DNA from: Chitinophagales bacterium | GTDB taxonomy: Bacteria; Bacteroidota; Bacteroidia; Chitinophagales; BACL12 | Direction: 5' to 3' | Length of the DNA stretch: 64,000 bases | NCBI GenBank assembly: GCA_044227505.1 | Contig: JBGAWP010000011.1 | Location: 424-64,423, forward strand | Part shown: one piece after another, positions 8,963-55,969 of the stretch | Position numbering within the stretch: the stretch's first letter is position 1 | Layout of the letters: each line of letters starts with the position of its first letter | Program-made: the position numbers and the translations under genes | The notes under the pieces: generated by a model | Seen by the model: only the letters and a program-made list of their open reading frames with translations | Database searches by the model: none | Told to the model about the DNA's origin: nothing

Positions 8963-9039
8963 CCCCAGCCCCATAGGGGAGTTTACCTTTTCGTAAATTG
9001 AAATATTAATTTCGAAGCAAAAAACTCCAATGTTACAAA

Positions 9040-9075
9040 CTGCCCACTGCCCACTGTTGACTGCCCACTGCCCCC
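9040..9075. repeat. Heptamer array (CTGCCCA)n abutting the stop of the dbpA-like gene
   Basis: ctgcccactgcccactgttgactgcccactgccc. A related copy in reverse orientation lies at about 33567-33589. Confidence 0.8.
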
Positions 9076-9076
9076 C

Positions 9077-10405: not shown

Positions 10406-10542
10406 GATGCAAAGATAGGCAGAATATAAGTGGTATTTCGGAAACTATATTTTGACGCATTGAAGTAAGTACATTAGAATCATTTTTTTACTTAGCGGAT
10501 TATTAAACATTTGTTCGTTTTCCTGATCCACCTGTATCAACC

Positions 10543-21584: not shown

Positions 21585-23213
21585 CTATTTATTTATACAT
21601 ATTTTATCAGAATAATTTTTTGATTGTAAAAGATACATTCCCGCTCCGAGTTCCGAAATGTTTAGCGTTTGAACAGCAGATATTAGTTTGGCTTGAAAAA
21701 CAATCTGGCCCATTGCATTTATTATAAATATATTCTCCTCTTCAGAAAAACTATTGGATTTGATTGTGATATAATTATTAGCGGGATTAGGGTAAATAAA
21801 CCTGTCTGACGGAATTATTGTTTCCTCCAATCCCACTTCAAATTCCGTTTCCAATTTCCAGATCTCTGCTCCCACTGCATCTACATTGCCATTTAAAATT
21901 GCCATTCCATTATAGGTGATCATGGAATAAGGATAACGCAACTCGTCGCATTCCAAAAGCTGAAAGGTGCCGTCAACAGTGCCATTGCTCTGAAAAACGG
22001 TTGTGCAGCCATTATCATCATCATAACCGCTATACACAATATTATTTCCATTGATAACCGTTGCAAAATTGGCCTCAAAGGAACCGGAAGCGAATTCAGA
22101 TAAAAATTTAGTTCCTGCATTTGTGCCATTGGTTACCCATAAACCATCATCATTGTCCGCATTATCTGCAGCAAAAAATATTTTATTTTCTGAAGGAAGA
22201 AACGCGTAATTTCCGGGAGTGAATTCTTCTCCATTTTCATCCAATAATTTTTGAGTGCCTGCAACAGTTCCATCACTGGTAAAAAGAAATTCGTCATCAC
22301 CATTATCAGCCATAAAAAACAATTGATCATTTAAAATAAAAAATTGATGTGGTTCCGAACCATCACCTTCATCCTCATTTACATTCATAAATAATTCCGT
22401 TCCGCCGGGAGTTCCATCAGTGCGCCATAATTCCTGATCATAAGGATCTCCATCACCACCGGCAAAATAAATATGATCTTCAAATTGTATGAACATATTC
22501 TTATACTCCTTTGCAATAACCCACATTTGTTTCAACAGAACGGTTCCTGCCTCAGTGCCATCGCTCTTCCACAATTCAGATAAGCCGTCTGCATTTTTGC
22601 ATCGGAAATAAATGGCATTATCAATTGCTGTAATAAATTCAGGAACGCTGCTTGAACCAATTGCCAGATCTTTGACAAGATATGTTCCGGCCTCTGTTCC
22701 ATCGCTGCGCCAGAGCTCTATATTGTTGCCTCCTCCATCGGCTGCGAAATATAAAATATCGTTCATTTCAGTGAAATATTGCGCCGACATAAATATCGAA
22801 TTTGAACAATCGCCTAAACCCGGATTTATGTCTTTTACCATATAAGTTCCTGCTTCGGTACCGTCGCTGCGCCATATCTCTGCTCCATAAACATTATCAG
22901 AAGCTCTGAAATATAAAATGTTGTTCATCACAATATGTTCGGGGCCACAACCATACACCGATTGACACATTGAATTGGCGCCGGTTCCAATATTTTTAAC
23001 CATCCAGGTTCCGGCTTCTGTTGCGTCTGTCCTCCATAATTCAATGCCATTTGAACCGTCATTTGCAGTGAAATAAATGATATCACCCATTTCAACAAAT
23101 AAACCGGGGTCGCTGTGCGCTTCACCCGGGTTAATGTCCTTAATCAATTCCAGTGTGTATTGGGCGTGCAACCTTGTAGTAACACAAAGTGCGATGAATA
23201 TTATTTTTTTCAT
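21585..23213 (-). CDS. ELWxxDGT-repeat protein with T9SS C-terminal domain (start moved to MKKIIFIAL at 23213)
   Basis: Repeated ELWRTDATEAGT / EIWRSDGTEAGTYMVKDI units. The tail is IYPNPANNYITI...GMYLLQS. The upstream 76 codons of the track ORF are translated repeat DNA. Confidence 0.85.
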   Translation of the reverse strand: MKKIIFIALCVTTRLHAQYTLELIKDINPGEAHSDPGLFVEMGDIIYFTANDGSNGIELWRTDATEAGTWMVKNIGTGANSMCQSVYGCGPEHIVMNNILYFRASDNVYGAEIWRSDGTEAGTYMVKDINPGLGDCSNSIFMSAQYFTEMNDILYFAADGGGNNIELWRSDGTEAGTYLVKDLAIGSSSVPEFITAIDNAIYFRCKNADGLSELWKSDGTEAGTVLLKQMWVIAKEYKNMFIQFEDHIYFAGGDGDPYDQELWRTDGTPGGTELFMNVNEDEGDGSEPHQFFILNDQLFFMADNGDDEFLFTSDGTVAGTQKLLDENGEEFTPGNYAFLPSENKIFFAADNADNDDGLWVTNGTNAGTKFLSEFASGSFEANFATVINGNNIVYSGYDDDNGCTTVFQSNGTVDGTFQLLECDELRYPYSMITYNGMAILNGNVDAVGAEIWKLETEFEVGLEETIIPSDRFIYPNPANNYITIKSNSFSEEENIFIINAMGQIVFQAKLISAVQTLNISELGAGMYLLQSKNYSDKICINK

Positions 23214-23316
23214 ATAAAAGGTTTGAAATTTTATACAGCAAATTGACTGTATTTTATTGAGTTTAGCAAGGAGAAAAAAGGGAGATTGTAGCGATGGGTT
23301 GAAGATTTGAGGTGTT

Positions 23317-23432
23317 AAAGATTCGAAGGGAGAAGATTCGAAGAGTTGAACCCGCCTGCTGACTGCGTCGGGCAGGGGTGAAGGTTCTAAGGGTCTAAGG
23401 AAGGAAGGTGTTGCAAGGTTGAAAAAGGAGGT
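23317..23432. repeat. Composite repeat, copy 2 (partner of 15405-15517), carrying a CCTGC..GCAGG hairpin insert
   Basis: aaagattcgaagggagaagattcgaag ... gaaggttctaaggg..aaggaaggaagg..aaggttgaaaaagg. Confidence 0.85.
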
Positions 23433-23512
23433 TCCAAGCACTAATATGCCGTTAGTGACCCTCCTAAGCGAGATCTCATGATGTATTATTTTTTAAACTC
23501 CACCGTTTGTTT

Positions 23513-25108: not shown

Positions 25109-25171
25109 TAAACTCACTTGGTAATATTTCCTTAATTCCAGAAAAATCTTAAATTTGCGTAGCATACACAC

Positions 25172-26521
25172 ATGAAAAAAATCAAGATCATCGCCATTTT
25201 CCTATTCTTTGGGATACCCATGAATTCCTACTCGCAATTGACTTTGAATTGTGATAATGATAGTTCCGGATTGATTCCGCTCACCGATCTGGGCACTGGA
25301 TTTTACGAGGGTATTCAGGGAGGATTATATCCGGGTGGCAGTAACGAAAGGCCATCGGTCCATCTGCAAAAAGGAATTGATATTGCCCATACCATTGAGC
25401 CATTGAATGATGGCGGAGGTGTTGATTACGATAACGGTCAAGTATTATTTATTGGCATGGGTGGATCAAATGCTTCTAATGCTTATAATATGTTTATCGA
25501 TACCATGAAAAGTTATAACTGGAAAGGAACCAGTCAGTGTATGAATGTAAAAGGGCTCTTTTACGGAGGAAAAGATCTTCACGATATGATTGATTCTACC
25601 TCCACTTTTTATTGGGATGAATTGCAAGGTCGCCTTTTCAACCGCAACGATACGTGGGAGCAGGTTCAAATTGTTTGGATCTTGGAACAAAGCGAATTGG
25701 AAACCACTGATCTGGCTTATTATATAGATTATGTTGCTGATCAATATACCACCTTAATGCATATCATGTTGGATAGTATGCCTAACTTAAAAATGGTATA
25801 TCTAAGCGGGTTTCATTACACTGGATACACGCATCCTGAACATGAACTTTTTGATTTTCTGGTAGAACCGAAGGGATATTGGGGAAATCTGGCGATTAAA
25901 GAATTGATTGCACGACAAATTAACGGAGATCCCGCGCTTGATTTTGAAGGTGAAGGCAGAGTTGCACCATATATAAACTGGGGACCTTATTTTTGGGCAG
26001 ATGGTGTTAAACCACGCGGAGGAGATTTTCTGAGTTGGCCCTGTGAGGATTACAGAGATGACGATACCGGTGGTGGATTTCATTTGGAGGAGATCGGAAA
26101 ATACAAAGAAGCAAAAATGCTGATCAATTTTTTCGAAACCGACACTGTGTCGAGCTGGTGGTACAAAGCAGGAGTGCAATGGGAGGATTGCGAACAGGAC
26201 ACTACCGGTTATATAGATGATCATAATTTAAAATTCCGCGATCCGGCAGAAGAGGCTATAAAATTTTATCAGGCACAAACCACCAATAATATAACGATCG
26301 AAATTTCGGATGTAAAGGAAAATGATCTCACTTGTTCCATTTATAATTTAGGAGGAGAAAAGATATTAACGGAAAATGTAAATACGCTTGCTACAAATAA
26401 ATACATGTTAAATGTTGAAAATTATCCTGAAGGGATGTATGTATTTGTAGCACAAACTTCAGATGGTCCTGTGTCAGGTAGTTTTTATATTAAGAATTAC
26501 GCGGTAGAAATTAACCCCTGA
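25172..26521 (+). CDS. Hypothetical secreted protein with T9SS-like C-terminal beta-sandwich
   Basis: It has a signal peptide (..MNSYSQ) and the tail CSIYNLGGEKIL...EGMYVFVAQT. The catalytic domain was not recognised; the FIGMGGSNAS block is vaguely esterase-like. Confidence 0.7.
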   Translation: MKKIKIIAIFLFFGIPMNSYSQLTLNCDNDSSGLIPLTDLGTGFYEGIQGGLYPGGSNERPSVHLQKGIDIAHTIEPLNDGGGVDYDNGQVLFIGMGGSNASNAYNMFIDTMKSYNWKGTSQCMNVKGLFYGGKDLHDMIDSTSTFYWDELQGRLFNRNDTWEQVQIVWILEQSELETTDLAYYIDYVADQYTTLMHIMLDSMPNLKMVYLSGFHYTGYTHPEHELFDFLVEPKGYWGNLAIKELIARQINGDPALDFEGEGRVAPYINWGPYFWADGVKPRGGDFLSWPCEDYRDDDTGGGFHLEEIGKYKEAKMLINFFETDTVSSWWYKAGVQWEDCEQDTTGYIDDHNLKFRDPAEEAIKFYQAQTTNNITIEISDVKENDLTCSIYNLGGEKILTENVNTLATNKYMLNVENYPEGMYVFVAQTSDGPVSGSFYIKNYAVEINP

Positions 26522-30976: not shown

Positions 30977-31378
30977 CTAGAAGTTACTCTTATCCGTCGC
31001 CATTACAATCCTTACATGATTTTTCGCGCCAATCTGAAGCACATCCACAAGATCCTGAATGGTTAATGTTGCATCTGCGCGAAGTACTACAACTTTTTCG
31101 GTTGAGCTTGCAGTTGCATTATTGAGTTCCATTTCGAGCATGTCGAAACTCACCTGACGATCGTCGATGAAATATTCTTTTGCAGCATTTACTGTAAGTG
31201 TAACATCTTGTTTGCTATAAGTATCTGTAGTTCCGCTTTGCGGCAGTAATACTTTTATCACGTTTGGATTTGCCAAAGTGGAAATGATCAAAAAGAATAA
31301 CATCAGGAAGAACATAATATCGTTCATCGTTGACGAAAACACTTCGAGATCGTAATGTTTTTTTCTTCCTATTTTCAT
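30977..31378 (-). CDS. exbD: ExbD/TolR family biopolymer transport protein
   Basis: 133 aa with an N-terminal TM segment (MNDIMFFLMLFFLII) and a periplasmic domain. It overlaps exbB by 1 nt. Confidence 0.88.
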   Translation of the reverse strand: MKIGRKKHYDLEVFSSTMNDIMFFLMLFFLIISTLANPNVIKVLLPQSGTTDTYSKQDVTLTVNAAKEYFIDDRQVSFDMLEMELNNATASSTEKVVVLRADATLTIQDLVDVLQIGAKNHVRIVMATDKSNF

Positions 31379-32070
31379 TATTCTTTAGTATTAATGATAC
31401 GTATAAAATCAAAGGCCGCACGCTGCAATCTCAATGCAAAACGTTCAATTTTCATTGTAAGTAAGTTAAATGCACCATATGCGATAATACCAGTTAATAA
31501 TCCGAATCCACTGGTGATCATTTTCTGATATAAACCTGCGGAGATAACAGAGATACTGATATCGTTCGTTGTAGAAATATCATAAAAGATGGTGATAACA
31601 CCGGCAATGGTTCCGATAAATCCGAGCATGGGAGCTATACCTGCAACAATTCTCAACACACCCATATGTTTTTCCATTTCCAGAATTTCGATGTTGGAAG
31701 CAGTTTCCAATCCTGATTCCACTTCATTCATCGGACTACCAACCATGTCCAATCCAGTGTCAACAACCCTCGCTACGGAAGTATTTACATTTGCCACATA
31801 TCCTTTTGCCGACTTTAAATTTCCTAAAACGAGTTGATCTCTTACTTGTGGAATTAATCTGTTATCAATTTTTGATTGGGCATTTATGGTGATGAATTTA
31901 TATATCCAAACATAAATTGTGATCACCAATAAAATAGCGATCGGTATCATTACCGGACCACCCTTTGCAAGCAGTTCAAATATTCTCAGTTTTTCCTGTG
32001 GTTCCACTGCGGGTGTTGTAAGTGTTGACACAGCAGTGTCCTGTATTTGAAGAATGAATGATAAAACCAT
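31378..32070 (-). CDS. exbB: MotA/TolQ/ExbB proton-channel family protein
   Basis: Three TM segments and the conserved LRIVAGIAPMLGFIGTIAGVI block. Confidence 0.9.
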   Translation of the reverse strand: MVLSFILQIQDTAVSTLTTPAVEPQEKLRIFELLAKGGPVMIPIAILLVITIYVWIYKFITINAQSKIDNRLIPQVRDQLVLGNLKSAKGYVANVNTSVARVVDTGLDMVGSPMNEVESGLETASNIEILEMEKHMGVLRIVAGIAPMLGFIGTIAGVITIFYDISTTNDISISVISAGLYQKMITSGFGLLTGIIAYGAFNLLTMKIERFALRLQRAAFDFIRIINTKE

Positions 32071-43704: not shown

Positions 43705-44106
43705 ATGAACGAATTGTTCCATATTTTGATCAAAAGTGATTCCACAACCGGCCTGGCTGAGATCATGAGTGGCTATTTGCGGTTTTACAGCGATAACAGG
43801 ATAAATGTGACAATTTCTGGTAAGAACAGGGTAATTCACCCACTTGCAGAGCAGGTTTTATCAGAAGATGGGATAGAATTTGAGCCATTTATTATTTCAA
43901 AGAGCGTTATTCATCCAGACTTGACAATCATTATCAATAATAATGCACTCTCAGGTAACACTGAGGACCCATCAGTTAAACACTATAATTTCAGAAACCC
44001 TCTTCTGTCAAGCGACTACGATCAAATTCTTTCAGATTTCAGGACCGTAAGGGAAGAAATTAAAAAGGATTGTATACAACTGGTAGGTGAATTGCAATTG
44101 GTTTAG
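43705..44106 (+). CDS. LMW-PTP/ArsC-fold protein lacking the catalytic Cys and Arg (probable pseudo-phosphatase)
   Basis: ILIKSDSTTGLAEIMSGYL aligns with the canonical ILFVCTGNSCRSQMAEGYL, and ..HPLAEQVLSEDGIEF also matches. P-loop changes are Cys to Ser, Arg to Leu and Ser to Ala. Confidence 0.5.
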   Translation: MNELFHILIKSDSTTGLAEIMSGYLRFYSDNRINVTISGKNRVIHPLAEQVLSEDGIEFEPFIISKSVIHPDLTIIINNNALSGNTEDPSVKHYNFRNPLLSSDYDQILSDFRTVREEIKKDCIQLVGELQLV

Positions 44107-44302
44107 TAGATATTTTAATTTATTTAGAATTAAAATATCTGTCAAATTCTCTTAATTACCATTGAGAATTAATTCACCTTGGTAATTTTTAAATCCAGAT
44201 CATTGTTTACTTAATCTTATTTTAATATTATTTCTTGGGATTCAGTATGATACCTTTTCTTCAATGAATATTTTTGCCATACATATTATTATATGTTTAG
44301 TA

Positions 44303-44342
44303 GAAAGGTTGTGTGAGAAATTACACAACCTTTCATTTTTTA
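44303..44342 (+). terminator. Rho-independent terminator about 200 nt downstream of the nearest plus-strand stop
   Basis: 12-bp stem gaaaggttgtgt/acacaacctttc followed by a T-rich run. Confidence 0.55.
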
Positions 44343-44507
44343 AATCCAACTAAATTTTACAATTAGTTAGCATTCGCATAAAACTCTGTTTTTAAGTTTA
44401 CAGATAACTCACCATTTAATCAGATTATTATAATTTAATATCACAACGGTATTAATACTGCACTTCTACTTTTGCCCTCATTAATTTCTAACTAAAAAGC
44501 AATAACA

Positions 44508-46880
44508 ATGAAAAAATTATTACTAGGTTTTCTGACCATCGCGACAGGATTCACCGCGATCAAGGCTCAGGTTGTCACCGTAAGTGGTGAAATAACGACC
44601 AACACAACGTGGACCAACGACAACATTTATCTTTTAAGTGGTTTTGTTTATGTTGAAGATGGTGCAACACTAACCATTGAGGAAGGAACACTAATTAAAG
44701 GTGACAAAGCTTCCAAGGGCACTTTAATTATTACTAAAACAGGAAGTATTAATGCAATTGGTACTGAATGTGAACCAATTGTTTTTACATCAAATGAACC
44801 TGCAGGTACAAGAACTTATGGCGATTGGGGTGGAGTTATCCTATTAGGAGAAGCCCCTATTAATGTTCCCGGCGGAAGCGCAGTAATTGAAGGTGGAGTT
44901 GATACTCCTGAAGGTGATGGAACCTATGGCGGAGCAAATGCATCTGATAACAGTGGTACATTTAAATATGTGCGCATCGAATTTGCAGGAATTCCTTTTG
45001 TTCCCGGGAATGAAATAAATGGTTTAACAATGGGCGGAGTTGGATCAGGTACCACCATAGATCATATTCAGGTATCTTATAGTGGTGATGATGCATTTGA
45101 ATGGTTTGGCGGAACAGTGAATGCCAAATATTTAATTGGATATCGCAACTGGGATGATGAATTTGATACCGATTTTGGATATTCAGGAAAAGTACAATTT
45201 GGTTATGTTTTACGCGATCCGAATGTTGCTGATGTTTCCGGTTCAAATGGTTTTGAATCAGACAATGATGCAACAGGTTCAGCAAATACTCCGATTTCAA
45301 GAGGTTTATTTTCTAACATTACTATTGCCGGTCCTAAAGTAAATACAGGTGATGTAATTAATGTAAATTATAAAAGAGGTGCTCATCAACGAAGAAATAC
45401 CATGACATCTATTTATAATTCGATCATTATGGGATATCCTGAAGCTGGATTTAAAATTGAAGGAACGAATACATCTTTAAATGCCCAGGCTGATAATTTA
45501 CAATTCAAAAACAATATTCTATCAGGTCATGGTGACGATTATCTTTGCACCACTTGCGATGCCGGATTTAATATTGATACATATGGTTCATCAAACGGAA
45601 ATCAAACTATTCTTTTAAATTCTGGTGTTGGATTAGTTGATGCCTTTAATTTATCAAATCCTGATCCCCGTCCAACTGCAGGTTCAACACCTACTACTAT
45701 TGGAACATATTTTGCAGGTTTATTAAGCGATCCTTTCTTTACACCAACCAGTTATGCTGGTGCATTTTCAACATCTGATAACTGGACTGATGAATCATGG
45801 GTTAATTTTAATCCTCAATCAACAGCTTATAACACTCCCGGAATTAATAATAACCCGACTGTTTCAGGCGTAGTTAGCAATATGACATGTCCGAATACAG
45901 GTTCAATTGATGTTTCAGTATCAGGTGGCGCAGGTGGATATACTTATGTTTGGAGCGATGGCCCAACAACACAAGATCGTTCCGGTTTAGCGGCAGGTTC
46001 TTATACTGTTACAGTAACAAGTAATGGTTGTTCAGCTGCTTCCACATTTAACGTAGCAGATGTAACAGTTCCAAAACCAACAGCCTTAATAGCTTCAAAC
46101 ATTACGCATTGCAGTGTTAAAGTAAGCTGGACAGCTGCATCAGGTGCTGCTACCTATGAAGTTCGTTATAGAATTGCAGGTGGAGTTTATTCATCACCTT
46201 TAAATATAGGTGCTGTCACAAACTATACCTTTATAGGATTAGCTGCAAGCACAAGTTATGACTTTCAGGTAAGATCTAAATGTGCTACGTCAGAAAAAAG
46301 TGCCTGGGCCAAAAAAACTACTTCTACAGTTGTTTGTGGTCAAGTAACAGGTGTTACTGCATCAAGTATCACCGCCAGCTCTGCAGTTATTAACTGGGCT
46401 GATGCTTGTGGAACTAATAACTACACTGTTCAATATCGTAAATTCCCATTAAAACCGTGGACTTCTTTACCAACCGCATTTACAACCACAAAAACTATAA
46501 CAGGTTTACTTGCTTCCACAACTTACGAAGTACGTATTATAACTAATTGTGGTGGTGGTGCTTCAACTCCAACTGCCTTCATTTCATTTACAACATTGCC
46601 ATTCCGTGCAGAAAATAATGTTATTGTTGATGAGAATTTAGTTCAGATCAACCCTAATCCTGCATCTGAAAATGTTGCATTGACAATTGAAGCAAATGCA
46701 ACTGTAAATGTTTCCATCGTTAATATGGTTGGACAAGTTGTATATGAAAATACTAATTTAACTGTTGATGGTTTCTCAACCATCAATCTTTCTGTAAACA
46801 ATTTAGAATCAGGAATCTATTTGGTAAATGTAAATGGTGACAATGTGAATGTTACCAAAGAGTTAGTAATAAGTAAATAA
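44508..46880 (+). CDS. Secreted beta-helix protein (paralog A) with SprB repeat, three FN3-like domains and T9SS C-terminal domain
   Basis: It has a signal peptide and an N-terminal roughly 300 aa closely similar to 49901..51769. The SprB-type repeat is CPNTGSIDVSVSGGAGGYTYVWSDG. FN3-like units follow (HCSVKVSWTAASGAATYEVRYR..), and the tail is INPNPASENVALTI...GIYLVNV. Confidence 0.85.
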   Translation: MKKLLLGFLTIATGFTAIKAQVVTVSGEITTNTTWTNDNIYLLSGFVYVEDGATLTIEEGTLIKGDKASKGTLIITKTGSINAIGTECEPIVFTSNEPAGTRTYGDWGGVILLGEAPINVPGGSAVIEGGVDTPEGDGTYGGANASDNSGTFKYVRIEFAGIPFVPGNEINGLTMGGVGSGTTIDHIQVSYSGDDAFEWFGGTVNAKYLIGYRNWDDEFDTDFGYSGKVQFGYVLRDPNVADVSGSNGFESDNDATGSANTPISRGLFSNITIAGPKVNTGDVINVNYKRGAHQRRNTMTSIYNSIIMGYPEAGFKIEGTNTSLNAQADNLQFKNNILSGHGDDYLCTTCDAGFNIDTYGSSNGNQTILLNSGVGLVDAFNLSNPDPRPTAGSTPTTIGTYFAGLLSDPFFTPTSYAGAFSTSDNWTDESWVNFNPQSTAYNTPGINNNPTVSGVVSNMTCPNTGSIDVSVSGGAGGYTYVWSDGPTTQDRSGLAAGSYTVTVTSNGCSAASTFNVADVTVPKPTALIASNITHCSVKVSWTAASGAATYEVRYRIAGGVYSSPLNIGAVTNYTFIGLAASTSYDFQVRSKCATSEKSAWAKKTTSTVVCGQVTGVTASSITASSAVINWADACGTNNYTVQYRKFPLKPWTSLPTAFTTTKTITGLLASTTYEVRIITNCGGGASTPTAFISFTTLPFRAENNVIVDENLVQINPNPASENVALTIEANATVNVSIVNMVGQVVYENTNLTVDGFSTINLSVNNLESGIYLVNVNGDNVNVTKELVISK

Positions 46881-46903
46881 AATGTTAATTGCAGTATGAT
46901 TGT

Positions 46904-46936
46904 AAGCCTCCCGAATTAGTACGGGAGGCTTTTTTG
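46904..46936 (+). terminator. Rho-independent terminator
   Basis: Stem agcctcccg/cgggaggct followed by a T run. Confidence 0.8.
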
Positions 46937-47022
46937 TTTACATTCGATTTATGTTTAACTAATGTTACAATAAAGATTAGGTAACATTAAAGCGAGTTCT
47001 TTGCATATAAATAAATAATAGT

Positions 47023-49890
47023 ATGTCAAGGAATCTTAAAATTGCATTTTTCCTAATTATTTCAGGTATTTCCGCCAATAATTTTGCTCAGTCAGGCACA
47101 ATAGCCGGAGTAATAATTGATGCTGATAATTCTGAAACATTAATTGGTGCTACTGTTAATGTTGAAAATGCGGCAGGTTTTATTACGGGAACAGATATTG
47201 ACGGGAGATATAATATTTCGGGATTAAATTCAGGCACTTATACACTAAAAATAACTTATGTTTCTTATGAAACAAAAATAATAGAGGGCGTTAATGTAGA
47301 AAATAATAAAGTAACCACAGTTGATATTGCATTAAATACGGAATTTAAAAGTGCATTGGGAGATTCCCTTCAGCTGATCATTAAAGGGAAACCCGGGCAG
47401 GAAACGATCAATGCAGTTTTAACGATTCAAAAAAACAATATTGGTCCCTCAGAGGTGTTATCACGAGATGTTATTTCTCGTTCTCCGGCAAAAACCACCG
47501 GCGATGCATTAAAAATGATGAGTGCAACTTCCATTGTTGATCAAAAATTTGTAGTGATACGCGGGTTAAGCGATAGATATAATCTTGCACTTGTTAATGG
47601 AAATTTATTGCCAAGTACAGAACCCGACAGAAAAACATTTGCTTTCGATTTGTTCCCTTCTGCAATGCTGGATAATTTAATTGTGTATAAATCAGCTCAA
47701 CCGAATTTGCCGGGAGATTTTGCAGGTGGAATTATTTCGATGAATACCAGAGATATACCTGATCAAAACTTCTTTTCCATTTCAGCAGGTGTGGGTTATA
47801 ATACAATTAGCACATTTAAAGAATATTATAGTTATACCGGAGGCAAAACGGATTGGCTGGGAATTGATGACGGAATACGTCAGTTACCGGATGCATTTCC
47901 TGCCACACGAGATGAATTCGTTGATATTCCACTTGAAGAAAAAGCAAACCTGGGCAAAGAATTTTCGCCATGGGGGGCTTTTAGCAATCCATCGGCACCG
48001 GTTGACCAAAGCTATCAATTATCGGGTGGTTTGATTAAAAAATTAAAAGGAGCAGGCGAATTTGGGTTGATTGGAGCATTAACTTACAATAATTCCTTTG
48101 TTACAAATCTTTCTGAGCGCAAAGATTTTGATAATGAGACCACACCGCTTTATGAATATGAGGATGAACAATTTAAAAACAACATTTTATGGGGTGGATT
48201 ATTTAATCTTTCCTTTAAAGCAAACGATAATAATAAGTTCACTTTAAAAAATTCTTATTCTGTTAATTCAACGGATATTACAACAATGCGAAGCGGAATT
48301 AATTATTCAAAGGCAGCATATGTTCAGAACGAATATTATTATTTCAGTTCAAATCAATTATTTTCCACTATTTTAGGAGGAGATCATTACTTACCGGGAT
48401 CAAAATTAAAAGCGAAATGGGGTGTTGGTGTAAATACACTTGTGCGTGATCAACCAAACTATAGAACTGTTAATTACTTAAAAAACATTACGCCTGCATT
48501 TGAGGGAGATACTTCTTTTCAAACATCGCCTTCTCCCTTTGCATCACCCGATAATATGGGAATATTTTATTCTTATATGGATGAACAAACCTATTCTGCA
48601 AATTTAGACCTTACGTATCCATTTCTTATTGGCGAAACAAAACAAACACTCGGATTCGGAGGAGGATATATGTTGAAAGACAGAGTATTTAATGCACGCA
48701 GCATGGGAGTTGCAACATCAAACGACATATTTTTTAATCCAAATTATTTTGCAATTGTTGCAATGTCGCCGGCCGATCAATTTGCTCCGGAAAATTTTTC
48801 AGATAGTTTATATTATATAGATGAAACAACGAACGCATCTGATAGTTATACAGCGCAACAAACAAATAAATCAGCATATATTATGCTGGATAATAAAGTT
48901 GGAAAAGATCTTAGAATTGTTTGGGGTGTTCGCAGCGAATTTTTTGTACAAACCTTAAGTTCGTTTGAATATACAGCCAATCCAAATCCGGAACCCATTG
49001 AAGTAAATACCGCTGAAACGGATAGTCTTGGATTGCGATTTGATCTGCTGCCTTCCATAAATATTACCTATGCGTTAAATGAAAAATCCAATATTCGGGT
49101 TTCCGGGTATAAAACAGTAGCACGTCCGGAATTAAGAGAATTAGCACCTTTTGGTTTTTATGATATAGAAACCAATTCCAGTATCATTGGAAATCCTTCA
49201 TTACTTGCAACCGATATCTATAATGCAGATATTAAAGCCGAACATTTTTTCGGAGCTGGCCAAATTATTTCTGCAGGTGTATTTTATAAAAGATTTATTA
49301 ATCCAATAGGGCAGCGATTCTTTTTTGGAACTGCACGTGAATTAAAACCTGTAAATGATTCTTTGGCAACAGTATATGGGGTAGAATTTGAAATGCGTAA
49401 AAATTTAGCATTTATTAACCGCAGCGCAAAAGTTCTGGAGCAATTTACTTTCAGCACTAACCTGTCACTTATCAGATTTAACACCTTATTACATGTAGCC
49501 GATACAGCACTGGCCGGAACTTCTGAAAGACAATTGCAAGGCCAGTCCGATTATGTAATGAATTTTGGCCTTACATATATTAACCCTGATAACGGATTAT
49601 CTGTTACAGCCTTATTTAATCAGATAGGCCGCAGAATTTCTGAATACGGAAATGCACAATACGATAATATCTATGAAAATCCAAGACCTCTTTTTGATGC
49701 CCAGATATCAATTCCTTTCCTCGATGAAAAAGGTTCTGTTAAAATAAATGTGAGTGATCTTTTAAATAAAAATGCAATCTTTTATCAGGATCTTGATGAG
49801 GATGGAAAATATGATGAAAACATAGACAACACTATTCGGAGCATCGACAGCGGTGCAAAAGTATCATTATCTATTAATTACAAATTTTAA
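47023..49890 (+). CDS. TonB-dependent receptor with N-terminal carboxypeptidase-regulatory-like domain
   Basis: GTIAGVIIDADNSETLIGATVNVE...DGRYNISGLNSGTYTLKITYVSYE, a plug region (VVIRGLSDRYN..LVNG) and a C-terminal beta-barrel ending ..SLSINYKF. Confidence 0.93.
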   Translation: MSRNLKIAFFLIISGISANNFAQSGTIAGVIIDADNSETLIGATVNVENAAGFITGTDIDGRYNISGLNSGTYTLKITYVSYETKIIEGVNVENNKVTTVDIALNTEFKSALGDSLQLIIKGKPGQETINAVLTIQKNNIGPSEVLSRDVISRSPAKTTGDALKMMSATSIVDQKFVVIRGLSDRYNLALVNGNLLPSTEPDRKTFAFDLFPSAMLDNLIVYKSAQPNLPGDFAGGIISMNTRDIPDQNFFSISAGVGYNTISTFKEYYSYTGGKTDWLGIDDGIRQLPDAFPATRDEFVDIPLEEKANLGKEFSPWGAFSNPSAPVDQSYQLSGGLIKKLKGAGEFGLIGALTYNNSFVTNLSERKDFDNETTPLYEYEDEQFKNNILWGGLFNLSFKANDNNKFTLKNSYSVNSTDITTMRSGINYSKAAYVQNEYYYFSSNQLFSTILGGDHYLPGSKLKAKWGVGVNTLVRDQPNYRTVNYLKNITPAFEGDTSFQTSPSPFASPDNMGIFYSYMDEQTYSANLDLTYPFLIGETKQTLGFGGGYMLKDRVFNARSMGVATSNDIFFNPNYFAIVAMSPADQFAPENFSDSLYYIDETTNASDSYTAQQTNKSAYIMLDNKVGKDLRIVWGVRSEFFVQTLSSFEYTANPNPEPIEVNTAETDSLGLRFDLLPSINITYALNEKSNIRVSGYKTVARPELRELAPFGFYDIETNSSIIGNPSLLATDIYNADIKAEHFFGAGQIISAGVFYKRFINPIGQRFFFGTARELKPVNDSLATVYGVEFEMRKNLAFINRSAKVLEQFTFSTNLSLIRFNTLLHVADTALAGTSERQLQGQSDYVMNFGLTYINPDNGLSVTALFNQIGRRISEYGNAQYDNIYENPRPLFDAQISIPFLDEKGSVKINVSDLLNKNAIFYQDLDEDGKYDENIDNTIRSIDSGAKVSLSINYKF

Positions 49891-49900
49891 AACTAGTATT

Positions 49901-51769
49901 ATGAAAAAACTGCAATTAACATTAACAATTTTCTCCTTGCTGTTTATTACAGCATTTACAAACGCACAATTACCTACCTACACTTTATCAGGTGAAATTT
50001 CCGGCATCACAAGAAATCTTGTGAATGATACCGTGTATATTTTAAATGGTTTTGTTTATGTGGAAGACGGCGCAACATTAAATATTGAGCCGGGAACTAT
50101 CATTCGTGGTGATAAAGATTCAAAAGGAACTTTGATCATAACACGAGGTTCAAAAATTTATGCAAATGGTACTGTCGACCAGCCGATAGTTTTCACCAGT
50201 AATCAGGCAGAAGGTGCAAGAAATTATGGCGACTGGGGTGGCTTGATCATTTTAGGTGATGCGCCGATCAATGTACCGGGTGGTGTAGCTGTAATTGAAG
50301 GTGGTGTTGATACACCGGAAGGTGATGCTTCTTATGGCGGAGCAAATGCTGCGGATAATTCAGGTGCACTGGTTTATGTGCGTATTGAATATCCAGGCAT
50401 CGCATTTGTTCCCGGAAATGAGATCAATGGCCTTACTTGCGGAGGCGTTGGTAACGGAACAATTATAGATCATGTGATGGTGAGTCGCTCTGGTGATGAT
50501 GCATTTGAATTTTTTGGAGGAACAGTGAATGCCAATTATTTAATTGCTCACAATACCTATGACGACGATTTTGATACTGACTTTGGATTTTCAGGAAAGA
50601 TTCAATTCGGCTTAGTAAAACGCGATCCTAATTTTGCGGATGTATCCGGTTCAAATGGTTTTGAAAGTGATAACGATGCAACAGGAAGTACAAATTCGCC
50701 TCAAACAAATCCAACTTTTAGTAATATTACTGTTATAGGTGCAATTCAAAATGCCGGAGATATTATTAATGTAAATTACAAACGCGGCGCCCATTTACGC
50801 AGAAATACTTCTACTGATATTTTTAATTCCGTAATTGTAGGTTACCCTAGCGGATTAATGATCGACGGTGCATTATGTGAAGCAAGTGCTTTAGCAAATA
50901 CGCTTAAAGTACAAAATACCGTAATTGCAGGTCACAATAATGATTTTGAAGTAGCCGTGGGAAGCACCTTTGATGCAGCAGCATGGTTTAATACGCCTGC
51001 TTATAGTAATACTATATATGATCTCAGCAGCGATATTATGTTAACAGATGCATATAATGTTACATCACCTAATTGTGTACCGATGCCGGGATCTCCATTA
51101 TTAACAGGTGCATCGTTTGCAGCACCGGAATTAGCAGGATTTACAAATGTAGCTTATCGCGGTGCATTTGGTGCTTTGAACTGGACATCTTGTTGGGCTA
51201 ACTGGGATCCGCAAAATACAAATTATGGTGAGGTACCGGGAACAATCGCACCTGCAATATCATCTTTTACATATGATAATTCGGGGCTGACTGTAACCTT
51301 TGTAAATACTTCATCAAATGCAGTTTCTTATTTGTGGGATTTTGGGGATCCATTATCTGATCTTGATTTTAGCACCGAAGCAAATCCAACATATACCTAT
51401 ACCGATCTTGGTATTTTTAATGTGACATTAACTGCTGTTGGTACTTGTGCCGATGTGAATGTTTCTGAACAACAACTCAACTTTTCCGTCGCAATATCAG
51501 ATTTAACCGGAATTAATGCAATTAGTATTTATCCAAACCCTGCGTCTGATGTAATTAATACAAATATAATTGCTTCCGAAAATTTTGATGCGATAATTTC
51601 GGTGCTTGATATTACAGGAAAAGTAATTCTGCCTGTATTAAATAAATCAATAATAAAGGGTGATAATAATTTGATGATAAATACCAATTCATTATCATCA
51701 GGACTATATTTCATATCCGTATCAAACGGAGTTGAACAATCCATACAAAAAATACTCATAACAAAATAA
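49901..51769 (+). CDS. Secreted beta-helix protein (paralog B) with PKD domain and T9SS C-terminal domain (start moved to MKKLQLTL at 49901)
   Basis: It shares long blocks with paralog A (GFVYVEDGATL, PIVFTS, YGDWGG, PGNEINGLT, SGDDAFE.FGGTVNA, FDTDFG, SGSNGFESDNDATGS, INVNYKRGAH.RRNT). The PKD block is FVNTSSNAVSYLWDFGD. The tail is IYPNPASDVI...GLYFISV. Confidence 0.85.
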   Translation: MKKLQLTLTIFSLLFITAFTNAQLPTYTLSGEISGITRNLVNDTVYILNGFVYVEDGATLNIEPGTIIRGDKDSKGTLIITRGSKIYANGTVDQPIVFTSNQAEGARNYGDWGGLIILGDAPINVPGGVAVIEGGVDTPEGDASYGGANAADNSGALVYVRIEYPGIAFVPGNEINGLTCGGVGNGTIIDHVMVSRSGDDAFEFFGGTVNANYLIAHNTYDDDFDTDFGFSGKIQFGLVKRDPNFADVSGSNGFESDNDATGSTNSPQTNPTFSNITVIGAIQNAGDIINVNYKRGAHLRRNTSTDIFNSVIVGYPSGLMIDGALCEASALANTLKVQNTVIAGHNNDFEVAVGSTFDAAAWFNTPAYSNTIYDLSSDIMLTDAYNVTSPNCVPMPGSPLLTGASFAAPELAGFTNVAYRGAFGALNWTSCWANWDPQNTNYGEVPGTIAPAISSFTYDNSGLTVTFVNTSSNAVSYLWDFGDPLSDLDFSTEANPTYTYTDLGIFNVTLTAVGTCADVNVSEQQLNFSVAISDLTGINAISIYPNPASDVINTNIIASENFDAIISVLDITGKVILPVLNKSIIKGDNNLMINTNSLSSGLYFISVSNGVEQSIQKILITK

Positions 51770-51790
51770 TAATAAAATTTCGTTTAACAG

Positions 51791-51820
51791 ACCCGGCAGA
51801 GTAATTTGCCGGGTTTTTTT
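51791..51820 (+). terminator. Rho-independent terminator
   Basis: Stem cccggca/tgccggg followed by a T7 run. Confidence 0.8.
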
Positions 51821-51870
51821 GTTCCTATTTGCTACCTTAGTGTTTTGTATTAAATACAAATCAGGTAAAA

Positions 51871-53241
51871 ATGAGGTATAAATACCTTTTGATAATAGTA
51901 TTTACATTACTAATAATGTGCAATCATATTCAAGCACAGCTGACCATACCATCTGAAATTTGGGACAGTGTGAAAACCAATACGCACCCGGTTATTGAAG
52001 CAGGCTTTGCCGATCAGTATGAAACGCCTTATCGAATGCCATTGGCAGATTATGGATGGGAAGATGGATTGCAGATATCTGCAGATGGCCTTCATCTTTA
52101 TGCTTTATATGCACCTGCTGATCTTTTATCCTGGATCGATTATATAAACTTAAATATCGCCCTCCCACCCTGCGATATTTTTGGCACAGGAGCTTTCCTG
52201 CGAAACTATGCTGATGATCATGGTATGGATATGACAACTAATATTTTTGGTTGTGACACCGCTTTAAATATTGATATTTTATATGCGCATAGAAATAATT
52301 TGGACGAAAATTTTATTTCCTGGGAATTATCCGGGATGCAAAGACCCGCATTTATAGAAGGCGGACCTTTTCCTTTACAATCGTCAGCAGATCCAAATGT
52401 TGCTGACCATTTTTTATTTACAGGAAATAATGACATCTGGATGATCAATAATACAAGTATAAATCCTGAAAATATAGCATCAGCCATTCGGCTCCCTGTA
52501 CCCATTAATCCTGCTTTGGATGAGTTTTCTGCTGATAATCCCATATTAAAAAGAATAAATAATTCAGATACCCTTTTACTTATTTATGAAAAATACACCG
52601 ATGGCGCTTTGCGTGATTTTATGTATGTATTCAGTTATGATGATGGACTTTCATGGGATGAACCGACACTTATTTCTACATTAAATAATGATGCAGGCCA
52701 TTTGGAAACACCTCAATTATATTTTGATGGAATAAACACCTATTTATATTATGGCCGCAACTTTGATATCTATCGATCGCGACAGGCTATACCAAACAAT
52801 TGGGATAGCTGGGTTGAAGAAGAAATGGTAATTTCAAAAGGAAATGCACTCGCCTTGGGTGAACCTTCCTTTGCACCAAATGGAGATATGAGTTTTGTGG
52901 TAGCTTATCACAATACAAATACTACAAATCCGAACGACCGCTTCGATGCGGATCCATGGTATGTAAAAAATAATTTTCCGCCAAATAATATTATTTCATC
53001 TGTTGCAGAAATGGTTCTCAAAGTTTTTCCAAATCCAACCTCTGATGAAATATTTATTGATGTATTTAATCAGGATATTTATTCACTTTCCATATCCGAT
53101 TTACATGGAAGTAAAACGATTTCGATAAAACATCCTGAAAATAAAATTAATGTTAGTGGTCTGAAATCCGGTATATATTTTATGGAGATAATAACCGAGT
53201 CAGGAGTAATGTTAAACAATAAATTTGTTATTGCTCATTAA
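51871..53241 (+). CDS. Hypothetical secreted protein, BNR/sialidase-like fold suspected, with T9SS C-terminal domain
   Basis: It has a signal peptide and an Asp-box-like YDDGLSWDEP. The tail is VFPNPTSDEIFIDV...GIYFMEI. Confidence 0.7.
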   Translation: MRYKYLLIIVFTLLIMCNHIQAQLTIPSEIWDSVKTNTHPVIEAGFADQYETPYRMPLADYGWEDGLQISADGLHLYALYAPADLLSWIDYINLNIALPPCDIFGTGAFLRNYADDHGMDMTTNIFGCDTALNIDILYAHRNNLDENFISWELSGMQRPAFIEGGPFPLQSSADPNVADHFLFTGNNDIWMINNTSINPENIASAIRLPVPINPALDEFSADNPILKRINNSDTLLLIYEKYTDGALRDFMYVFSYDDGLSWDEPTLISTLNNDAGHLETPQLYFDGINTYLYYGRNFDIYRSRQAIPNNWDSWVEEEMVISKGNALALGEPSFAPNGDMSFVVAYHNTNTTNPNDRFDADPWYVKNNFPPNNIISSVAEMVLKVFPNPTSDEIFIDVFNQDIYSLSISDLHGSKTISIKHPENKINVSGLKSGIYFMEIITESGVMLNNKFVIAH

Positions 53242-53246: not shown

Positions 53247-53606
53247 ATGTCGCAATTTATAACTAAACCTAACTTGCTTGTTGTTTGCGGTCGGAACAAA
53301 CGCCGAAGCAGAACAGCGGAATATTTATATAAAAACGACAGTAGGATACGTATCAAAAGTGCCGGATTAAGTGCACAAAGTGAAGTGGTTATAAATTCCA
53401 AGCTCGTGGAATGGGCAGATCTGATAATTGTAATGGATAACAGCCAGAAAACCCGGATTCAAGATCAATTCAGAACCCTCAATGTTCCTCGTATCGAAAA
53501 TATTAATATTGCGGATGAGTATGAATATCTGGATCCGGAGTTGATTGAGCTATTGAAGAGCAGAATTGAGAATATTTTAGCAAGTATTTCTATATTTGGG
53601 CACTAA
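53247..53606 (+). CDS. Low-molecular-weight protein tyrosine phosphatase family protein (COG4551-like)
   Basis: The P-loop LLVVCGRNKRRSRTAE fits C-X5-R-S. Downstream is D(L)IIVMD. Confidence 0.72.
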   Translation: MSQFITKPNLLVVCGRNKRRSRTAEYLYKNDSRIRIKSAGLSAQSEVVINSKLVEWADLIIVMDNSQKTRIQDQFRTLNVPRIENINIADEYEYLDPELIELLKSRIENILASISIFGH

Positions 53607-53625
53607 ACCACAATTTACCTCCATT

Positions 53626-54294
53626 ATGTTATTAATTTACGGAAGGAAAAAAGCGAAGATCAAAACACATTACGACAATGCAGGCAAATGCACAACGTGT
53701 AATGCCCATGATCTCAAATTTGATATTTACAGAGAGTATTTTCATATTTTTTGGATTCCATTTTTTCCTTTAGGACCAAAAGAAACCATTGTTACCTGCA
53801 CAAAATGCGGGCATGGAAATAATTCAAGCGAACGATTGGAAAATTATGAGGCTTTAACAAGAACACCCATTTATTTATTTTCCGGGGTATTCCTTGTAAT
53901 TTGTTTAATTACATGGATCACCATCAATTCCCAAAATGTTTCTAAACAGAAGTCTGCTTTGGTTTCCTCCCCTCAGGTTGGCGATATTTATTGCATGCGA
54001 TCAGAGGAGAATAGTTCCATGTACTATTATTTAAGGGTAGCAAGATTGAATTCAGATTCCGTTTTTTTATACCCTAATGTATACGAATATAGCATTCCGG
54101 TTTCCACTTTGGATAAAGCGGATCATTTTATTTCGCTGGAAATATATTATAAAAAATCAGATTTAAATCTACTGCTCGATAACGGGGGGATAAATTCTGT
54201 AAAAAGAGAGTATAAAGAATCGTCCGGGTACAATAGAATTTTAAAACCGGAGGATGATTCTGTTTTTCTTAAAATGATGTTGGAGACGATATAA
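53626..54294 (+). CDS. Zinc-ribbon domain membrane protein (ATG at 53626 preferred over the TTG at 53596)
   Basis: CTTC...17 aa...CTKCGH gives a CxxC pair, followed by one TM segment (IYLFSGVFLVICLITWITI). Confidence 0.6.
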   Translation: MLLIYGRKKAKIKTHYDNAGKCTTCNAHDLKFDIYREYFHIFWIPFFPLGPKETIVTCTKCGHGNNSSERLENYEALTRTPIYLFSGVFLVICLITWITINSQNVSKQKSALVSSPQVGDIYCMRSEENSSMYYYLRVARLNSDSVFLYPNVYEYSIPVSTLDKADHFISLEIYYKKSDLNLLLDNGGINSVKREYKESSGYNRILKPEDDSVFLKMMLETI

Positions 54295-54874: not shown

Positions 54875-55969
54875 ATGAAAAATATAAGTATTCAAACAGA
54901 AGTTGATGCTAGTTTTTTATATCAAAAATTAGCTGAGCATGAAAAAGATATCACTATAGCAGGTGTTTTTAAAAAAATGAGTGAAATAGAAAAAGGTCAT
55001 GCTGAGGCATTTGCTAGAAAACAGAATATGGATCTTACTTTACTCATGCAACCTTCATGGAGGGCCAAGACGATAAATTTGATCGGCAAAATATTTGGAT
55101 ATGATTATGTTTTAGGAGTTTTGTTAGAAACAGAAAAAGGAATATCCAGGTCAATAGTTGCCACAAAAGAAAAACAATCTCAAAAAATTACAGGTACAGA
55201 AACAGCACATGTAAAAATATTGCGCAATATTCTTGATCAGGAAACAACGATATCAGGTCAACAATTAAGCAGATTTGAAAAAAAACACCGTTCTGTTGGT
55301 GGAAATGCAATAAGAGCTGCGGTATTGGGAGGCAATGATGGACTGGTTTCGAATTTTAGCCTTGTTATGGGAATTGCAGGTGCTACTTCGGGACAGGAGG
55401 GTGTTTTACTTGCAGGCTTAGCCGGCTTATTGGCAGGCGCATTATCAATGTCGCTGGGTGAATGGATCTCAGTAAAAAGCTCACAGGAATTATATGAAAA
55501 TCAGATGCAAATTGAAATGGAGGAGTTGGAATCAAATCCCGAAGGGGAACAAAAGGAATTAGCACTTATTTACATTACAAAAGGGATTCCTGCACAACAA
55601 GCCCACGAAATGGCAGCTTCAATAATGCAAAATAAAGAACAGGCGCATGATTTACTAGTTAAAGAAGAGTTGGGTATTAATGCGGAGGAAATAAAAGGAT
55701 CTGCTGTTGAGGCTGCAATATACTCCTTTATTCTATTTGCTATCGGCGCTGTAATTCCAGTTATCCCATTTATGTTTTTAAGTGGTACAAATGCAATTAT
55801 TTTAAGTGTAACTGCAAGTGCAGCGGGACTTTTTTTAATAGGTGCCGCTATTACGTTATTCACTAGAAAAAATGTGTGGTATTCCGGTTTTCGTCAAGTG
55901 CTTTTTGGACTTGCAGCAGCAGCAATTACCTTTGGCATCGGATCATTGATAGGAGTTGCAATAGCTTGA
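54875..55969 (+). CDS. mbfA: VIT1/CCC1-family iron/manganese transporter with N-terminal ferritin-like (erythrin) domain, MbfA-like
   Basis: N-terminal FLYQKLAE...EKGHAEAF. The VIT1 core is GGNDGLVSNFSLVMGIAGA, with C-terminal TM helices. Confidence 0.85.
   Translation: MKNISIQTEVDASFLYQKLAEHEKDITIAGVFKKMSEIEKGHAEAFARKQNMDLTLLMQPSWRAKTINLIGKIFGYDYVLGVLLETEKGISRSIVATKEKQSQKITGTETAHVKILRNILDQETTISGQQLSRFEKKHRSVGGNAIRAAVLGGNDGLVSNFSLVMGIAGATSGQEGVLLAGLAGLLAGALSMSLGEWISVKSSQELYENQMQIEMEELESNPEGEQKELALIYITKGIPAQQAHEMAASIMQNKEQAHDLLVKEELGINAEEIKGSAVEAAIYSFILFAIGAVIPVIPFMFLSGTNAIILSVTASAAGLFLIGAAITLFTRKNVWYSGFRQVLFGLAAAAITFGIGSLIGVAIA

Follow-up and report, generated by a model that had tools for sequence, protein, structure and literature searches.

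Why should a TonB-dependent receptor (TBDR) lie between two surface proteins with beta-helix heads, and what do the three handle together? The question is raised by a 64,000-nucleotide (nt) stretch of a Chitinophagales bacterium genome (GCA_044227505.1, contig JBGAWP010000011.1, positions 424 to 64,423; hereafter the window, in whose positions all coordinates without a locus label are given). Here, a TBDR gene is flanked on the same strand by two paralogous genes, A and B, whose products appear to be cargo of the type IX secretion system (T9SS). An earlier note on this DNA had grouped A, B and a fourth gene, D, with the receptor in a candidate SusD-independent capture and uptake locus and had proposed the beta-helix proteins as partners of the receptor. 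Our analysis indicates that A and the TBDR-B pair quite probably form a Pho-regulon outer-membrane module for capture and import, of the type of ElpS from Caulobacter crescentus, BT4055-BT4056 from Bacteroides thetaiotaomicron and FII from Flavobacterium johnsoniae. The pair itself is not new, having already been published three times (ElpS with CC0171, FI-FIII with TonB-dependent transporters (TBDTs), and BT4055 with BT4056); the novelty is a form of this functionally unsolved system in which the partners are T9SS-anchored on immunoglobulin-like (Ig-like) stalks and are duplicated, with stalks of different length.

The four genes were found on the forward strand as described before: A (44508-46880; 790 amino acids (aa)), the TBDR (47023-49890; 955 aa), B (49901-51769; 622 aa counted from its ATG) and D (51871-53241; 456 aa). 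The mechanical open reading frame (ORF) of B opens further upstream, at GTG 49853, ahead of the ATG, which is favoured because the orthologs are exactly 622 aa long. The proposed paralogy of A and B is borne out by BLASTP, with 54% identity over ~500 aa (457 bits, E 4e-156), far past chance. A consists of a Sec signal peptide read by eye (cleavage at about IKA/Q), a Beta_helix_4 domain (approximately residues 22-445, 44571-45842; assigned via the PF28492 matches of homologs), an SprB repeat (residues 454-487, 45867-45968; Pfam), an FN3 region (46074-46601; Pfam fn3) and a T9SS type-A sorting tail (residues 714-788, 46647-46871; Por_Secre_tail and TIGR04183). The SprB repeat and the C-terminal tail had been recognised correctly, whereas the three FN3 domains of the earlier note become two, plus the Ig-like SprB repeat: Pfam finds two fn3 stretches and weaker FN3-like matches across residues 617-698. 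B, likewise with a Sec signal peptide read by eye, has the expected beta-helix, PKD and tail, as seen in an AlphaFold2 model and in Pfam: a Beta_helix_4 domain (49970-51235; homologs 94-95% identical to B carry precomputed PF28492), a PKD domain (residues 461-513, 51281-51439; Pfam) and a type-A sorting tail (residues 543-620, 51527-51760; Por_Secre_tail and TIGR04183). With sorting tails (PF18962 Por_Secre_tail scores of 47.6, 53.0 and 46.3 bits for A, B and D, respectively, and TIGR04183 matches in all three) and N-terminal Sec signals, A, B and D are predicted T9SS type-A cargo.

Between the paralogs, the TBDR comprises a signal peptide, a CarboxypepD_reg N-domain (Pfam; residues 26-104, 47098-47334), as anticipated, a Plug domain (Pfam; residues 140-235, 47440-47727) and a barrel. 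Its best NCBIfam match is TIGR01782 (TonB-Xanth-Caul) at 185 bits, under the cutoff of 310 for that model, and no SusC/RagA model was matched in the same search. A Pfam search of the neighbouring ORFs agrees with the note that no SusD, glycoside hydrolase, regulator or siderophore gene is among them; a SusCD-type locus was ruled out on the absence of a SusD domain and of a SusC/RagA match, and a classical siderophore locus on the absence of a siderophore gene among the neighbours. Terminators had been placed near 46904 and 51791, and hairpins resembling intrinsic terminators are indeed found behind A (46904-46931, +; a 10-pair stem with 7 G-C pairs, then a T run) and behind B (51789-51816, +; a 12-pair stem, then a T run), the second marking the end of the conserved unit. 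B follows the TBDR immediately, with 10 nt between the stop codon and the start codon of B (the note gave 11), and the two are probably co-transcribed. The hairpins and the short gap therefore make A alone, TBDR-B, and D with the genes downstream of it the likely transcription units.

Whether the beta-helix proteins belong with the receptor can be asked of other genomes, and the earlier note had named conservation of this neighbourhood as a check. We scanned 185,579 species-representative genomes (GTDB) once and took the 80 best loci, from Bacteroidota and Ignavibacteriota (L001 and similar labels denote fetched related loci). A homolog of the window TBDR lies on the same strand, at most 3.6 kb from the beta-helix gene, in 65 of the 80; the receptors beside Beta_helix_4 genes are 26-71% identical to that of the window, usually over the full length, and the commonest order is TBDR followed by the beta-helix gene, like TBDR-B. 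Among the 15 loci without a TBDR, ~10 have less than 3 kb of upstream flank, and L058, L063 and L084 are clear exceptions despite enough flank. Beyond the 65 genomes, the pairing also occurs in L001, L003-L007, L088, L089 and L093, and likewise on metagenomic contigs. Family members from Proteobacteria, of the alpha and gamma classes, are 28-41% identical. In Indioceanicola, an alphaproteobacterium (41% identity), the beta-helix gene is followed by a TBDR and gspN-gspD, B aligns at E 2e-42 with a Hyphomonas protein in which the domain occurs twice, and in Parabacteroides distasonis a TBDR precedes a gene for a 547-aa beta-helix lipoprotein. In Pseudoalteromonas, exbB-exbB-exbD-tonB is followed by the gene for a triple-domain beta-helix protein and then by a TBDR. 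This last layout, seen in L089 (a Pseudoalteromonas donghaensis plasmid or chromid, 1-10987) as an exb/tonB set with a hypothetical gene, a 1366-aa protein with three Beta_helix_4 domains and a TBDR, recurs in many Pseudoalteromonas second replicons.

Because the adjacency is kept across phyla, we consider it ancient, and it strongly supports the view that the TBDR has the surface beta-helix proteins as its dedicated partners. It also speaks to a role independent of the receptor, in which A and B would be released factors that stimulate extracellular phosphatase, as originally proposed for ElpS, or adhesins, and adjacency would reflect co-regulation only. The SprB and FN3 modules of A are typical of adhesins; overexpression of ElpS, itself inactive and cleaved off the surface, raised extracellular alkaline phosphatase activity (PMC2996285); and few confident AlphaFold-Multimer contacts were obtained for BT4055-BT4056 (10.1101/2023.03.17.533168). 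However, same-strand adjacency in Bacteroidota, Ignavibacteriota and Proteobacteria, despite changed anchors and gene order, exceeds what co-regulation usually preserves, and B starts only 10 nt past the TBDR stop, so that we give a receptor-independent role very little credence. Thus, the SusD-independent partnership proposed for the two beta-helix proteins is backed by cross-phylum synteny, and the first ground for refutation named in the note, a beta-helix family not syntenic with TBDRs elsewhere, does not apply; the inclusion of D, discussed below, is not backed.

What, then, are the heads? More than 7900 relatives of the N-domain are present in a large protein database, all with a precomputed match to Pfam PF28492 (Beta_helix_4), and an exhaustive profile-free search returned 6928 cluster representatives (E ≤1e-3). 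In L001, the ortholog of A carries precomputed PF28492, SprB, two fn3 and Por_Secre_tail matches, and it is through such precomputed hits of homologs that the N-domains of A and B are assigned to Beta_helix_4. Residues 1-445 had no match in a Pfam set without PF28492, in NCBIfam or among sequences of PDB chains, and a literature search for 'Beta_helix_4' found no paper on the family by that name. Many members of the family (P0121-P0268) are giants, in which Beta_helix_4 occurs two to six times in tandem and the length reaches 2403 aa. Names of cluster members, looked at for ten representatives, were uninformative, and database names of homologs vary: that of Hymenobacter sp. YIM 151858-1 (NZ_CP110137.1; L094 6857-8290) is a 'cell shape-determining protein MreB' in RefSeq, which looks like an annotation error, and that of P. 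distasonis (L093 6572-8215) an 'Ig-like domain-containing protein'.

An AlphaFold2 model of residues 1-445 of B (mean predicted local distance difference test score (pLDDT) 89.4, predicted template-modelling score 0.89) consists nearly entirely of short stacked strands. In a Foldseek search of the PDB, this model matched exclusively right-handed beta-helix proteins, namely, PL6 alginate lyase, AlgE4 epimerase, pectate lyases, GH28 enzymes and phage tailspikes, all of them weakly (best E 2e-3, template-modelling (TM) score at most 0.36, ~10% identity). The head is predicted to adopt the right-handed parallel beta-helix (pectin-lyase-like) fold, without a close solved relative; the fold guessed in the earlier note agrees with this model, although membership in an enzyme family does not follow, no lyase or hydrolase model of Pfam or NCBIfam having matched the N-domain. 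Invariant across phyla are D152, E174/N176, D199-D200-E203, D221-D222-D225, E255-D257-N258 and R300, with the acidic residues spaced 22-34 residues apart, the length of a beta-helix coil, and the calculated isoelectric point (pI) of the N-domain is 4.2. From the acidic pI and the invariant residues at the coil period, we infer a groove that holds cations; by analogy with calcium in pectate lyases and beta-propeller phytases, such cations could bridge the head to phosphate groups.

The same features can be read as those of a polysaccharide utilisation system without SusD, in which pectate-lyase-, alginate-lyase- or polygalacturonase-like heads would degrade an acidic glycan to oligosaccharides for import by the TBDR. 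The structural neighbours of the head are all carbohydrate-active beta-helix proteins, and a ladder of Asp and Glu with an invariant Arg is also used by calcium-dependent pectate lyases (PL1, PL3, PL9). On the basis of homology models, Lidbury et al. suggested a role at the plant cell wall, but in the same work the published induction was by phosphate depletion, not by nitrogen or iron limitation (PMC8115612). The structural similarity is as weak as the values above indicate, the enzyme-family searches were negative, and no carbohydrate-active enzyme or sugar-catabolism gene stands beside the pair in the loci with annotated neighbours, which instead contain pst, phoD and OmpR-type regulator genes. 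On balance, a glycan-degrading role is unlikely.

These neighbours also point to the nutrient involved. The L007 and L010 clusters contain, in order, genes for an OmpR-type regulator, pstS, the beta-helix protein, the TBDR, a 446-aa protein, pstS-pstC and further ABC-transporter components, and the L007 TBDR, inside this pst cluster, is 40% identical to that of the window over the full length. The phoD gene lies directly 3′ of the B ortholog in L001, L009, L011 and L021; pst, phoU or phoD occurs within 8 kb in 12 of the 80 loci, against a rough chance expectation of fewer than 1 for random 14-kb loci; and in many loci an OmpR-type response regulator gene is divergent from the TBDR. The unannotated 446-aa protein, encoded between the TBDR and pstS (L007 12735-14075, L010 12716-14023, L084 10710-11882), has no Pfam match in its L007 version and was ruled out as a homolog of D; it may be a porin, given the OprP porin in the phoBR cluster of F. 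johnsoniae.

A tandem promoter motif accompanies these genes. Of 59 regions upstream of a TBDR, 20 contain the heptamer CTTAACA, compared with 1.6 in shuffles; it forms arrays, with two to eight copies repeating every 11 bp, that end right before the Bacteroidota TAnnTTTG promoter box. This array geometry is that of a Pho box, and such arrays are also found ahead of pstS (L016) and of the 446-aa gene heading the pst cluster (L007, L010). The 11-bp-periodic repeat is a candidate Pho box for Bacteroidota and Ignavibacteriota. Arrays of [C/G]TTAACA are located ~20-120 nt 5′ of the TBDR start in L001, L009, L013, L016, L017, L020, L047, L062, L066, L069, L083 and L085, and Hymenobacter has the variant (G/A)TAACA. 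Together, the pst and phoU (pstSCAB-phoU), phoD and OmpR-type neighbours, the tandem motif and the literature point to phosphorus scavenging. The substrate, which the earlier note had called unknown, can be narrowed to this extent.

Within the window, a refined position weight matrix (PWM) of three repeats, trained without the window and its two closest relatives, recovers a weaker form of the motif. The A promoter region (44197..44385, +) has weak TTAACA-like repeats with the 11-bp period, a candidate Pho-box-like element, scoring 9.9 (44353-44385), 8.3 (44197-44229, +) and 8.8 (44202-44234, -). The region between A and the TBDR (46848..46993, no strand assigned) has (G/C)T(T)AACA-like repeats, also with an 11-bp period, 5′ of the TTCTTTGCA promoter-like element, scoring 10.0 (46956-46988, +) and 12.3 and 11.3 (46848-46891, -); here the proximal site, GTAACAT, is 16 nt 5′ of TTCTTTGCA, in the register of the fourth repeat of the clear L001 and L009 arrays. 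None of 146 AT-rich control windows within the 64 kb reaches 9.9, and 8 of the 11 sites that score at least 7.5 in the whole 64 kb are upstream of A or the TBDR, whereas the region 5′ of D scores -7.2 and has no promoter motif. The distribution is suggestive of one regulon shared by A and TBDR-B but not by D. The three other hits at or above 7.5 are at 25118-25150 (+) and 25299-25331 (-), flanking the start of the T9SS-tail gene 25172-26521, and at 16500-16532 (+), inside an M4 peptidase gene and probably due to chance.

Phosphate genes could also be neighbours through co-regulation only, with the acidic head capturing a cation (iron, calcium or a lanthanide) or a chelate for uptake of a metal or micronutrient. 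Metal chelates are the cargo of many characterised TBDRs, the head is very acidic with invariant ladders of Asp, Glu and Asn, and a gene for a VIT1-type iron transporter is found at 54875-55969. The latter, however, lies past the terminator, D and two further ORFs, and is not kept beside the orthologous loci, and the annotated related loci showed no gene for a siderophore, a reductase or a Fur-type protein. The F. johnsoniae relatives are repressed by iron limitation and induced solely under phosphate depletion (PMC8115612). We therefore see only a slim chance that the unit serves metal uptake.

Several observations weigh against assigning the window locus to a Pho-regulated import module. The promoter repeats of the window are degenerate, a strict PWM built on exact CTTAACA pairs detects no tandem site of significance there, and the refined PWM, having been trained on the same promoter class, supports the claim without being independent proof. 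No pho or pst gene is near the locus in the window. The tie to ElpS, BT4056 and Fjoh_0546 (FII) is one of architecture, context and distribution, none of the 80 best loci coming from the model strains and no Caulobacter entry being listed among the homologs of an alphaproteobacterial member, and the lipoprotein relatives are tethered N-terminally but A and B C-terminally, so that a common docking geometry is unproven. The published biochemistry and genetics are negative or thin: refolded ElpS was inactive as a phosphatase, and cells lacking elpS kept the same extracellular phosphatase activity (PMC2996285); no phenotype was seen for mutants in BT4055 or BT4056, and high-confidence AlphaFold-Multimer contacts were few (10.1101/2023.03.17.533168). 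For these reasons, we regard the Pho-regulon import module as probable rather than established.

How the partners are held at the surface varies among the related loci. We typed the anchors by a heuristic combined with by-eye reading of the termini of the beta-helix proteins in all fetched loci. In ~41 of the 80 genome loci, the proteins are lipoproteins of 444-593 aa, most of them shorter than 550 aa, without a T9SS tail; their lipobox is followed by a charged export signal, e.g., CKKDDED (...TACKKDDED). In ~35 of the 80, they combine a Sec signal peptide with a T9SS tail, are ~520-1839 aa long and often bear PKD, FN3 or SprB spacers or several beta-helix copies. Both anchors together were found in none of the 80. 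By their termini, A and B belong to the T9SS-tail type of Beta_helix_4 partner: their Sec-type signal peptides have no lipobox cysteine and do not qualify as lipoprotein signals. The head would then be tethered by the opposite end of the protein, on a stalk, which makes the seating of a rigid 'lid' on the receptor less obvious than a tethered capture arm.

The duplication of the partner is also not peculiar to the window. The A-TBDR-B triad, with the architecture of A intact, is kept in the related Chitinophagales L008, L023, L001 and L021, with full-length A orthologs at 74% (L008), 68% (L023) and 50% (L001) identity, from which it follows that the duplication is old and has been maintained. 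In L021 (4944-7739; a metagenome-assembled genome (MAG) of Chitinophagaceae), the TBDR ortholog aligns in three separate adjoining pieces and is either a pseudogene or the product of a frameshift in a long-read assembly. Our literature search found no paper on a T9SS-anchored partner of a TBDT; database architectures show such proteins implicitly.

For the Pho-regulon import module that we favour, the following sequence of events can be envisaged. Under phosphate limitation, a PhoB-type regulator would activate the promoters of A and TBDR-B. A and B would be exported by Sec and then by the type IX system, and their C-terminal sorting tails would fix both to the cell surface, with the acidic heads held off the membrane on Ig-like stalks, a single PKD domain in B and SprB plus FN3 in A. 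The heads may bind, and possibly trim, an extracellular phosphorus-containing ligand, probably via metal ions on the ladder of invariant Asp, Glu and Asn residues, and would hand it to the TBDR for TonB-powered import. Periplasmic phosphatases of the PhoD type (PhoD in the sister genomes) and PstSCAB would finish uptake. A broader extension, which we put forward tentatively and consider rather doubtful, is that the Beta_helix_4/TBDT pair constitutes a general route for import of polymeric or metal-complexed phosphorus, such as polyphosphate, phytate-metal complexes, or colloidal or mineral phosphate. The head would hold such a ligand through bridging cations and the tether would be interchangeable, attached either by a lipid at the N-terminus or, via Ig-like stalks of varying length, by a T9SS anchor at the C-terminus, with A and B serving as a long and a short 'fishing rod' on one transporter. 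If this holds, A and B would represent the first case of a TBDT partner anchored through the T9SS, and the role of ElpS, a puzzle since 2010, would be settled.

Gene D does not belong to this unit. As described, it encodes a protein with an Asp-box and a T9SS tail: one canonical Asp-box (SYDDGLSW, residue 255) is present, and Por_Secre_tail is the sole Pfam match. The AlphaFold2 model (pLDDT 79) shows a beta-propeller and a C-terminal sandwich, which Foldseek relates weakly and about equally to GH32, sialidase and GH43 propellers (E 5.6e-9 to 1e-5, TM <0.4). The family is small: a search gave 83 hits, and BNR_2 is present in one of them. D is absent beside the closest orthologous A-TBDR-B loci and its homologs have unrelated neighbours, one of them lying in a MAG with an orthologous A-TBDR-B locus but on a different contig; for these two reasons, it was dropped from the system, contrary to the earlier proposal. 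The idea that D stands in for PhoD, which occupies the same position in the sister genomes, was rejected as well, given the lack of a phosphatase signature and of a promoter motif and the unrelated contexts of the homologs. Nor is a T9SS neighbour remarkable here, because the window has at least 9 T9SS-tail genes, including A, B and D. The others are at 2104-3741 (-), 6263-8416 (+), 15725-18058 (-), 19772-21508 (-), 21585-23441 (-) and 25172-26521 (+); the T9SS-tail genes of the window include those for a CotH-kinase-like protein, an M4 thermolysin-like peptidase and several proteins without any other recognisable domain.

The remaining neighbours can be described briefly. Five nt past the D stop, a 119-aa ORF (53247-53606, +) contains VVCGRNKRRS, a CX5R(S) motif, and matches low-molecular-weight phosphotyrosine phosphatase below threshold, and a zinc-ribbon ORF (53596-54294, +) overlaps its end; neither is kept beside D homologs elsewhere. 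Upstream of A, a 133-aa ORF (43705-44106, +) without a Pfam match has a counterpart at the same position in the closest relative (L008 107-502; 45% identity) and may belong to the locus. An ExbB-family gene (31378-32070, -), ~15 kb from the TBDR and abutting another 133-aa ORF (30977-31378), could be part of the system that energises the receptor.

Bacteroidota are major phosphorus recyclers in soil, water and wastewater, and many of them lack classical high-affinity systems. In F. johnsoniae, few low-phosphate surface systems are induced as strongly or are as abundant as the ElpS/FII/BT4056-TBDT pair, which is conserved in hundreds of genera. With T9SS-anchored partners in about half of the sampled Bacteroidota and Ignavibacteriota, models of the export and seating of lids must allow for delivery by the type IX system, and also for the fact that the partner can be duplicated, with stalks that differ in length. 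The 11-bp-periodic CTTAACA repeat, if confirmed, would be a handle for predicting Pho regulons in both phyla.

Compared with SusC/SusD systems, including the phosphate-regulated and phosphate-induced PusCD, the window locus shares the principle of a surface binding protein that feeds a TonB-dependent barrel. It differs in having no SusD-like gene, no SusC/RagA match and a beta-helix partner in place of the all-helical SusD.

Of the three published pairs, ElpS (CC0170) was described first, as a surface lipoprotein of ~50 kDa that C. crescentus makes under phosphate starvation in a PhoB-dependent manner; elpS adjoins the TBDR gene cc0171, just 5′ of type II secretion genes, and homologs were listed from Shewanella, Bacteroides, Xanthomonas, Sphingomonas and Hyphomonas (PMC2996285, Le Blastier et al. 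2010). The Indioceanicola locus repeats this layout of beta-helix gene, TBDR and type II secretion genes, and the N-domain of the window proteins has alphaproteobacterial homologs. By contrast with ElpS, a lipoprotein released via the type II system, A and B have Sec signals, Ig-like stalks and T9SS tails, and the window thus has two such proteins.

The F. johnsoniae proteins FI, FII and FIII (Fjoh_3856, Fjoh_0546 and Fjoh_4889; TBDTs Fjoh_3857 and Fjoh_0545; loci Pus3 and Pus4) are lipoproteins with a pectin-lyase fold and without a Pfam family, and rank among the strongest low-phosphate-induced transcripts and the most abundant exoproteins (PMC8115612, Lidbury et al. 2021). Two of the three adjoin low-phosphate TBDTs, one within the phoBR operon, and the proteins and their TBDTs respond to phosphate depletion only, not to nitrogen or iron limitation, the latter being repressive (PMC8115612). 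According to a 2026 preprint, the function of loci of this type is still hard to predict (10.64898/2026.09.03.749221). The window locus resembles them in pairing a CarboxypepD_reg and Plug TBDT with a pectin-lyase-fold surface protein that has no older Pfam family, and many of the fetched loci share the adjacency to phoBR; the differences are the T9SS cargo of the window versus lipoproteins in F. johnsoniae and the lack of a phoBR or phosphatase gene next door in the window.

BT4055/BT4056, finally, is one of six 'alternative lid' families, lids being defined as lipoproteins with a lipoprotein export signal; BT4056 is 40% identical to Fjoh_0546 and a distant relative of ElpS, and the adjacency is kept in 621 genera, 394 of Bacteroidota and 171 of Proteobacteria (10.1101/2023.03.17.533168, Price, Deutschbauer and Arkin 2023). 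Our scan gives the same wide adjacency of a non-SusC TBDT with a non-SusD surface partner of the pectin-lyase superfamily; in the window, however, it is the other end of the protein that is anchored, through a T9SS tail that follows Ig-like spacers. Because the fold, the size of the lipoproteins, the TBDT architecture, the phoBR adjacency, the taxonomic spread and the layout linked to type II secretion all match, as does the lack of an older Pfam family on either side, we infer, from architecture, context and distribution and not from alignment to those named proteins, that the window pair belongs to the ElpS/BT4056/FII family, in its T9SS-anchored form.

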